From the sequence record OR532814.1: a stretch of DNA of 64,000 nucleotides; one strand, given 5' to 3'. A program made the translations under genes and the position numbers. This stretch comes from Klebsiella phage RCIP0020. Positions within the stretch are counted from its first letter, which is position 1, and each line of letters opens with the position of its first letter. The notes under the pieces are model-generated. The model was not told where the DNA came from. It saw nothing but the letters and a program-made list of their open reading frames with translations, and did no database searches. Below, piece by piece: positions 36,263 through 36,576 of this stretch.

Positions 36263-36269
36263 AAATATC

Positions 36270-36346
36270 GGCCCCTTAGCTCAATAGGTAGAGCTAATCA
36301 CTCATAATGGTTAGGTTCCCGGTTCAAGTCACGGGAGGGGCCACCA
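36270..36346 (+). tRNA. tRNA-Met (anticodon CAT) with encoded CCA; T-arm slightly irregular
   Basis: 7-bp acceptor stem GGCCCCT/AGGGGCC, D-arm GCTC-AATAGGTA-GAGC, anticodon arm AATCA-CTCATAA-TGGTT, then ...ACCA. The T-arm reads CCCG-GTTCAAGTCA-CGGG, one nt longer than canonical. Confidence 0.65.
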
Positions 36347-36351
36347 AACAA

Positions 36352-36428
36352 GGCAAGGCACTTAGAGAAGCGGGAGGAACAGAATCTGATTCTGTTGGTT
36401 GTAGGTGCAAATCCTACCCTTGCCACCA
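36352..36428 (+). ncRNA. tRNA-like structured RNA (acceptor stem, T-arm and CCA intact; D/anticodon region replaced by a perfect hairpin)
   Basis: GGCAAGG...GTAGG-TGCAAAT-CCTAC-CCTTGCC-A-CCA. The interior holds a 9-bp perfect hairpin AACAGAATC/GATTCTGTT with no anticodon loop. Confidence 0.45.
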
Positions 36429-36576
36429 AATTTGGGTGCGAGCGCAATGCCGTTAAATGGTTCGGAATATGCAACCTTATCCACGGGAAAGGCTCTGTTG
36501 GTATCCGGTAATAGGTTCCCCGGAATGCGGGGTGAAGTAAAGAAACTCCCAGCCCACTAATTTTAATGAGGTTTAT

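Follow-up and report, generated by a model that had tools for sequence, protein, structure and literature searches.

Here we present an analysis of three small RNAs encoded side by side in Klebsiella phage RCIP0020, within a window of 64,000 nucleotides (nt) from sequence record OR532814.1, to which all coordinates refer unless another locus is named. The window is that of a Slopekvirus, a T4-like Klebsiella phage, and the RNAs are clustered at 36270-36557, between an rIII-like gene and a set of small open reading frames (ORFs), with no terminator inside the cluster. The most novel item of the interval is the third RNA, of 125 nt, and not the tRNA-like RNA that precedes it: the 125-nt RNA represents an uncatalogued structured RNA family that is well supported by clear covariation among its aligned sequences. 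The tRNA-like RNA, of 77 nt, has been listed as a tRNA-Gln; its features suggest to us, tentatively, an RNA that is processed as a tRNA and may act mainly off the ribosome. The three RNAs are located as follows:

36270-36346, plus strand: RNA 1, a tRNA(CAU), reported by ARAGORN and by Rfam model RF00005 at 53.3 bits.
36352-36428, plus strand: RNA 2, a 77-nt tRNA-shaped RNA, drawn as a cloverleaf by ARAGORN -ps and given 23.3-24 bits by the Rfam tRNA model.
36432-36557, plus strand: RNA 3, a 125-nt multi-helix RNA, delimited by alignments A3 and A4, covariation and covariance model (CM) R1.

The secondary structure of the 125-nt RNA was derived from the alignments, and comprises these elements, all on the plus strand:

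36432-36/36553-57: helix P1.
36437-39/36444-46: helix P1b.
36450-60: a possible hairpin, tentatively assigned.
36462-70/36501-08: helix P2.
36471-73/36496-98: helix P3.
36475-92: hairpin P4.
36518-22/36528-32: helix P5, a GC hairpin (CCCCGGAATGCGGGG), with a tentative extension.

Throughout the alignment, the junctions and loops are invariant, while the helices are variable and compensating. With 14 sequences, 94.9% of the cells are paired and 10 pairs have changed on both sides, compared with 4.3 in shuffled alignments (0/500) and two or fewer in slid controls. When the diverged members found by CM R1 were added, 14 pairs were changed on both sides, compared with 7.0 after shuffling (0/500) and at most four in the slid controls. 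Independently, RNAalifold recovered P1, P1b, P2-P3-P4 and P5. Within Slopekvirus, P4 exists as two haplotypes that carry perfectly linked double compensatory changes, T/C at 36480 going with A/G at 36488, and C/T at 36481 with G/A at 36487. Compensatory C-G to U-A pairs are also found in P5 of RB43 and of Morganella phage MP1. An earlier note on this DNA, made from the sequence without database searches, had reported a further GC hairpin behind the tRNA-like element; the hairpin is present, at 36518-36532, but it is not free-standing, being helix P5 of the larger RNA. Relatives scored 95-151 bits with CM R1. In Klebsiella phage CPRSB (locus L164, 998-1132), five additional nucleotides (CGGGT) are inserted on the 3' side of P5 and lower the score from ~151 to 128 bits; they represent a bulge that is tolerated or else an error of sequencing.

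A search of the 4227 covariance models of Rfam 15 gave no match in 36429-36560, even at E<=10, so that known ribozyme and riboswitch classes were set aside as an identity for this RNA. Literature searches by sequence and by topic found neither RNA 2 nor RNA 3 described, apart from the tRNA-Gln call for the former. One invariant segment of the 125-nt RNA, GGGGUGAAGU (36533-36542), is the same as what we take to be the 3' strand of helix 44 in 16S rRNA, at the decoding site; this identity of 10 nt is within chance expectation and was discarded.

In GenBank records of relatives, the same DNA is annotated as a gene:

36447-36560, plus strand: an ORF of 37 amino acids (aa) inside the 125-nt RNA.

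The labels given to it range from "anti-CBASS protein acb2" (Roth22) and "putative tail tubular protein A" (VAC66, VAC13) to hypothetical protein, and it matches only phrog_22418, which has no assigned function. In relatives, the ATG gives way to ACG or AAG, the frame is interrupted by indels of 1 nt and 8 nt, and the changes are those that compensate within helices. Since neither start nor frame is conserved, we reject the ORF as a gene and regard it as an annotation artefact. The "tail tubular" label probably spread from an over-extended gp11-like coding sequence in Drulisvirus that runs over the 125-nt RNA. On the minus strand, a 102-aa ORF with an ATG start (36298-36606) runs across RNA 3, RNA 2 and the 3' end of RNA 1; it is annotated in none of the inspected records and is almost certainly spurious.

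The 3-kb stretch round the RNA cluster is 97.7-99.7% identical to that of ~110 Klebsiella phages of the genus Slopekvirus, among them KP15, KP27, Matisse, Miro and PMBT1, and 74-80% identical to that of Pseudotevenvirus (RB43, RB16, GAP161, Lw1, Margaery). The segment 36432-36557 is better conserved than the tRNAs, with 90-96% identity in Pseudotevenvirus. Copies of 82-85% identity occur in Pantoea phage Phynn and also in Kp_Pokalde_001 and mtp6, podophages of Drulisvirus, where the RNA is flanked by a terminator and by the gene for tail tubular protein A. Further members were found in the Drulisvirus phages NTUH-K2044-K1-1, cp48 and K40PH129C1, in Yersinia phage JC221, in two 44-kb podophage contigs and in a soil-metagenome T4-like phage. 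Pattern scans of IMG/VR gave mostly chance matches, the only new members being MP1 (L184), two podophage contigs (L214 and L248) and a soil-phage contig (L141).

In the T4-like relatives the 125-nt RNA is syntenic, lying 3' of an rIII-like gene either directly or after one or two tRNAs. An rIII-like homologue stands directly 5' of it in Phynn and in the soil-metagenome phage (L150/L151). In Morganella phage vB_MmoM_MP1 (L184, 5239-5368, minus strand), a diverged copy heads a cluster of 11 tRNAs, directly before an Ile2-type tRNA(CAU) and ~25 nt after an extended -10-like motif, TGTTATAAT; as judged from this layout, it would form the 5' leader of the tRNA transcript. In potential hosts, no homologue was found in 5,426 E. 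coli genomes, and when 185,579 species genomes were scanned for the exact pattern, the sole match was a phage-like contig from a Flagellimonas assembly. On this contig (NZ_JBHSCL010000010.1, "Flagellimonas marina", 178 kb; L158, 1741-1871) the 125-nt RNA comes after a tRNA-Gly of GAP161 type; the contig is probably phage DNA that contaminated the assembly.

The 125-nt RNA usually precedes a ribosome-binding site (RBS) by 15-40 nt; in MP1 it precedes a tRNA. The genes behind it are not the same from phage to phage, which speaks against a riboswitch specific to one gene, and the ~45 unpaired nucleotides that stay invariant in two phage families point to a specific partner or chemistry. Candidate functions, which we do not rank, are a protein-, ribosome- or RNA polymerase-binding RNA, a new ribozyme or aptamer, and a processing or stability leader.

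The second RNA of the cluster is laid out as follows, all on the plus strand and as read from the sequence:

36352-58/36418-24: acceptor stem, GGCAAGG/CCTTGCC.
36361-77: D arm, weak.
36379-95: anticodon arm, with its loop at 36384-90 and the anticodon CTG at 36386-88.
36378-36396: a perfect 19-nt palindrome, AACAGAATC-T-GATTCTGTT.
36396-36400: variable region.
36401-17: T arm, GTAGG-TGCAAAT-CCTAC, with the T-loop TGCAAAT.
36425: A73, followed by CCA at 36426-28.

A second 77-nt element with an acceptor stem, a T-arm and a 3' ACCA had been claimed in the earlier note, and is borne out at 36352-36428. The further claim that only these parts of a tRNA were retained does not hold: the segment lengths (7/2/4-9-4/1/5-7-5/5/5-7-5/7/1/CCA) are the exact dimensions of a cloverleaf, and both an anticodon arm and a weak D arm are present. 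The anticodon arm is canonical, with a 5-bp stem and a 7-nt loop, AUCUGAU, that includes U33 and A37, and the D-stem has 3-4 bp (the cloverleaf drawing counts three, one of them G-U). The perfect 9-bp hairpin said to replace the D and anticodon arms exists as a 9+1+9 palindrome, but it is the anticodon arm itself and replaces neither, and sterically it can form at most 8 bp. It is composed of the 5-bp anticodon stem and of complementarity at 26-44, 32-38 and 33-37 round a self-complementary C-U-G. Because the flanks of the anticodon loop are complementary, the arm can zip to 8 bp closed by a CUG triloop. For RNA 2 in isolation, this closed form was predicted at -22.7 kcal/mol, compared with -18.3 for the open cloverleaf and a minimum free energy of -24.3. 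When closed, the arm has pairs at 32-38 and 33-37 and leaves 34-36 exposed, a conformation resembling that of tRNA-Gln bound to glutaminyl-tRNA synthetase (GlnRS), as Rould et al. reportedly described it in 1991.

Annotation programs disagree over this RNA. With default settings ARAGORN did not report it, and with the threshold relaxed to 95% it gave a 77-nt tRNA-Gln(ctg). The Rfam tRNA model RF00005 returned 23.3 and 24.0 bits (E=0.002-0.014), below its gathering threshold of 29. RNA 2 thus has the cloverleaf layout of RF00005, as drawn by ARAGORN -ps, and lacks both the gathering score and the near-universal tertiary nucleotides of that family. The covariance-model check proposed beforehand came out in favour of both elements, the first tRNA being no pseudogene at 53.3 bits and the second being far from random. 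In GenBank, RNA 2 is labelled tRNA-Gln, "tRNA-Leu pseudogene", or not at all, and the paper on KP15 and KP27 stated that tRNAscan-SE 2.0 "revealed second tRNA ... tRNA-Gln with CTG anticodon" (PMC5219037). It is, then, already known as an annotation, and its abnormality appears to have gone undiscussed. The earlier statement that RNA 2 cannot decode does not follow, since it has a full anticodon arm with CUG and is both published and annotated as tRNA-Gln(CTG). A tmRNA-like reading, with a tRNA-like domain and a tag ORF, was rejected, as ARAGORN found no tmRNA and pair 3-70 is C-G and not G-U.

The abnormality shows in the positions that shape the tRNA core and elbow. The acceptor, anticodon and T stems are Watson-Crick paired throughout, and about half of the near-universal tertiary positions are changed: U33, G53-C61, U54, C56 and A58 are kept, and in place of the usual bases there are C8, G14 and G55, while the D-loop, GAGAAGCGG, has no GG in register for G18-G19. 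Together with the sub-threshold CM score, the loss of U8, A14, G18G19 and U55 upholds the earlier view of RNA 2 as tRNA-like yet abnormal. In every one of the 22 tRNAs compared (from the window, E. coli, T4, GAP161 and Morganella phage MP1) the T-loop has TTC; that of RNA 2 is UGCAAAU.

One reading is that RNA 2 is a working, if unusual, tRNA-Gln(CUG), charged by GlnRS through its anticodon loop and reading CAG during infection. It shares with E. coli tRNA-Gln(CUG) (glnV/glnX) the size of the cloverleaf, the encoded CCA and 10 of the 11 bases at positions 30-40, the loop being identical at 33-38 (AUCUGAU versus UUCUGAU); the comparison sequence was checked and is 100% identical to annotated tRNA-Gln genes. 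The anticodon-loop determinants of GlnRS (C/U34, U35, G36, A37, U38) are all present, C34, U35, G36, A37 and U38 being the same as in host-type tRNA-Gln. tRNAscan-SE 2.0 calls it tRNA-Gln, and it occupies the slot that holds a canonical tRNA-Gly(UCC) in the sister genus. However, it differs from the E. coli tRNA in C8, G14, G55 and the missing G18G19, and it falls below the Rfam threshold and is missed by default ARAGORN. GlnRS identity also depends on pairs 1-72, 2-71, 3-70 and 10-25 and the discriminator, in addition to U35, and mutation of the determinants can reduce activity by up to 10^5-fold (PMC9976931). In the acceptor and D-stem, only G2-C71 fits and 4/5 determinants differ, RNA 2 having G1-C72, C3-G70, A73 and C10-G25 where E. 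coli tRNA-Gln has U1-A72, G3-C70, G73 and G10-C25.

Variation and codon use also bear on this reading. The sole base of RNA 2 that varies recurrently is 36387 (T to A), at the centre of the palindrome and in the middle of the anticodon. An A at this position in phiEap-3 and Miro changes the anticodon from CUG to CAG and removes U35, and in 5 of the 110 records the copy is >=99% identical to that of phiEap-3. The base that a decoder could least afford to change is the one that changes recurrently, and the U35A variants argue against obligatory binding of GlnRS. The enterobacterial hosts have a strong preference for CAG. In RCIP0020, glutamine codons are 51% CAG and 49% CAA, so that CAG is not over-used by the phage and codon use provides no rationale for a phage-borne reader of a codon that the host favours. 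Overall, we consider a working tRNA-Gln possible but doubtful.

A second alternative is that RNA 2 is a decaying pseudogene, a neutral remnant in a slot of varying content. It is flagged as such by Pharokka-type annotation, and the content of the slot does vary: of the sister genus, GAP161 and Maroon have a canonical tRNA-Gly(UCC) there, at the same 5-nt spacing, and RB43 and Lw1 have nothing. Maroon lacks the first tRNA, and Phynn and the soil-metagenome phage have no tRNA whatever at the locus. The site that RNA 2 occupies in Slopekvirus is a hotspot of insertion; Miller/CfP1-type phages have an annotated 240-nt ORF between tRNA-Ile2 and the 125-nt RNA (Citrobacter phage CfP1, L163, 897-1136). 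Derivation of RNA 2 from the tRNA-Gly(UCC) of the slot, or from any T4, MP1 or host tRNA, was tried and dropped, the identities (48-59%) being no higher than in shuffles.

No copy of RNA 2 was found outside Slopekvirus among 50,697 phage records, and within the genus 104 of 110 records are identical over 87 nt. Only one of its 77 columns varies among 18 distinct Slopekvirus copies, compared with ~2.3 variable columns per 100 in gp31 and rIII and ~10 in the downstream ORFs. This low variation fits constraint without proving it, the divergence within the genus being too low for that. Against decay stand the 17/17 perfect acceptor, anticodon and T-stem pairs and the extra complementarity of the arm, alongside diverged loop and tertiary positions, as well as the identity of the 104 genomes. 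Neutral decay that changed about half of the invariant positions would be expected to break stems too, which is not the pattern found. A pseudogene is therefore, in our judgement, rather improbable. A link to the "unknown DNA modification" of KP27 was likewise abandoned, because KP15 has the same RNA and lacks the phenotype.

The palindrome could also act at the DNA level, as the site of a dimeric protein or a nuclease, with the tRNA-like context being incidental. A perfect 9+1+9 inverted repeat in which only the central base varies is what such a site might look like, but it falls exactly at the position of the anticodon arm, amid a perfect acceptor stem, a T arm and ACCA, and nothing else points to a DNA-level site. 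We give this very little credence.

The reading that we prefer, though with slightly less than even confidence, is that RNA 2 is a selected RNA, processed as a tRNA, that acts mainly off the ribosome and is not an efficient CAG decoder. According to this proposal it would be a full-length tRNA derivative that RNase P cuts out and that needs no CCA addition. Both steps are suggested by the 12-bp acceptor/T minihelix, which is kept, and the encoded A73-CCA; the earlier claim that the module addressed by RNase P and CCA-related enzymes is retained was correct as to what is seen, with processing itself predicted from it. RNA 2 would then present a tRNA-Gln-type anticodon arm on a body without the D/T-loop elbow and the core nucleotides, and might serve as a mimic, decoy or ligand of a putative tRNA-binding factor. 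This would account for the intact helices together with the lost elbow, for the UGC T-loop, and for the freedom of the central anticodon base.

Some known RNAs offer parallels. Non-proteogenic tRNA-Gly species of S. aureus have a TGC/TGT T-loop as their hallmark and serve cell-wall synthesis and not the ribosome, and a UGC T-loop makes pseudouridine-55 impossible (PMC7826273). RNA 2 has the UGC T-loop, with helices that are otherwise intact, and these molecules are a precedent for tRNAs used off the ribosome. The usual D-loop GG is absent from RNA 2, as it reportedly is from the Staphylococcus RNAs. The two differ in that the staphylococcal tRNAs are Gly acceptors with the Fem transferases as known clients, whereas RNA 2 has a Gln-type anticodon and is phage-borne, and two sequence features are all that they share. 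The mascRNA binds GlnRS and stays uncharged (PMC9976931); like it and viral tRNA-like structures, RNA 2 would be tRNA-shaped, matured by tRNA enzymes and non-decoding. There is also a class of phage tRNAs, in T5 and mycobacteriophages, that counter tRNA-targeting defences by changes in the anticodon loop and are otherwise canonical, functional decoders. RNA 2 is likewise a phage RNA of tRNA type whose sole recurrent variation is in the anticodon loop. To our knowledge, no tRNA-Gln-directed nuclease has been described for Klebsiella.

Several points weigh against this preferred reading of RNA 2. It rests on sequence, and the partner, be it a defence nuclease, a transferase or an effect on GlnRS, is only putative. 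tRNAscan-SE 2.0 accepts RNA 2 as tRNA-Gln and all the loop determinants of GlnRS are there, so some charging and decoding would be possible. The parallel with non-proteogenic tRNAs stands on two sequence features. Finally, Slopekvirus genomes differ by only ~1-2.5% at the locus, the 77 nt show no significantly better conservation than gp31 and rIII, and no diverged homologue of RNA 2 exists in which covariation of the cloverleaf could be read.

Both RNA 2 and RNA 3 invite comparison with T4 species 1 and 2 (rnaC/rnaD), small RNAs of unknown function that lie by the phage tRNA genes and are released from the same transcripts (PMC3014915). The likeness drawn in the earlier note proved to be one of position alone. 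As in T4, the RNAs of the window sit beside tRNA genes in what is probably one transcription unit, and homology of RNA 2 to species 1/2 could be argued from this setting after tRNAs, from its encoded CCA-like 3' end, and from the T-arm-like CCGGGTTCGAATCCCGG in which T4 rnaC likewise ends. But local alignments of both window RNAs with rnaC/rnaD scored 14-18, within the shuffle distribution (means 15.5-17.1), and CM R1, run on the T4 tRNA region with filters off, gave no hit above 7 bits. Moreover, the location here is after gene 31/rIII, compared with the segB/e region in T4. Homology to the T4 RNAs is accordingly most improbable.

RNA 1 is a genuine tRNA(CAU) with an encoded CCA, as the earlier note had stated; its T arm has the following peculiarity:

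36329-36339, plus strand: T arm of RNA 1 with an extra A, UUCAAGUC-A-CGGG.

The extra nucleotide noticed previously in this arm is an A in the 3' strand of the T-stem (GGUUCAAGUC-a-CGGG in the Rfam alignment and the ARAGORN drawing), and is common to Lw1 and not found in GAP161. phiEap-3 has a further G-to-A change in the T-loop of this tRNA. None of the 77 columns varied among the 18 Slopekvirus copies. The identity is most likely tRNA-Ile2, a putatively lysidine-modified reader of AUA, and not the tRNA-Met of the earlier note. The body is of Ile2 type, and the best E. coli matches, among the matches listed, are all annotated tRNA-Ile. The trnI of P1 is 79.5% identical, the RB43 counterpart is annotated as isoleucyl tRNA, and several Slopekvirus records have tRNA-Ile or Ile2. 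AUA makes up 9% of the isoleucine codons in the window.

Genes at the locus run from dCMP deaminase and gp31 co-chaperonin through an 83-aa ORF and the RNA region to small ORFs of unassigned function. The features that flank the RNAs are:

36011-36262, plus strand: the 83-aa rIII-like ORF, matching phrog_7211 (E=1e-55) and, weakly, phrog_1457 (E=7.6e-6).
36577-36858, plus strand: a 93-aa ORF matching phrog_3723, function unassigned.
37297-37314, plus strand: the first downstream terminator-like hairpin, annotated as a terminator in Matisse, KP27 and Miro.

The weaker match of the 83-aa ORF, phrog_1457, is the "lysis inhibition accessory protein" (T4 rIII). RNA 2 has 5-nt spacers on either side, and the RBS of the 93-aa ORF, GAGG, lies 11 nt beyond the 3' end of the 125-nt RNA. 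A scan for consensus motifs found no promoter-like site on the plus strand in 35138-36890 and no plus-strand terminator before 37297. Because such sites are absent between them, the three RNAs probably share a polycistronic transcript with at least the 93-aa ORF that follows.

Taken together, the two RNAs that follow the tRNA might form a stable-RNA module of two non-decoding molecules. One would be an anticodon-arm mimic without an elbow, and the other the 125-nt RNA, of an undescribed class whose members have passed between the T4-like myophages and the Drulisvirus podophages that infect Enterobacterales. This is a speculative view that we think could be right but would not expect to be. RNA 2 would in that case be a decoy or ligand of an anticodon-loop-directed host factor, for example a defence nuclease or GlnRS, the CUG/CAG polymorphism might be the trace of a conflict with this factor, and the 125-nt RNA would resemble a ribozyme, an aptamer, or a specific protein- or ribosome-binding RNA.

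RNA 2 has been entered without comment as tRNA-Gln in more than 100 phage genomes and in one paper. If it is an off-ribosome mimic, it would be a new type among the few RNA tools of phages, and codon-usage arguments based on its annotation would be wrong. The 125-nt RNA spans two phage families and adjoins tRNA genes in three T4-like lineages. Its recognition corrects a propagating annotation error, the bogus 37-aa ORF, and provides a compact candidate for a new class of functional RNA in Klebsiella phages of the therapeutic type.

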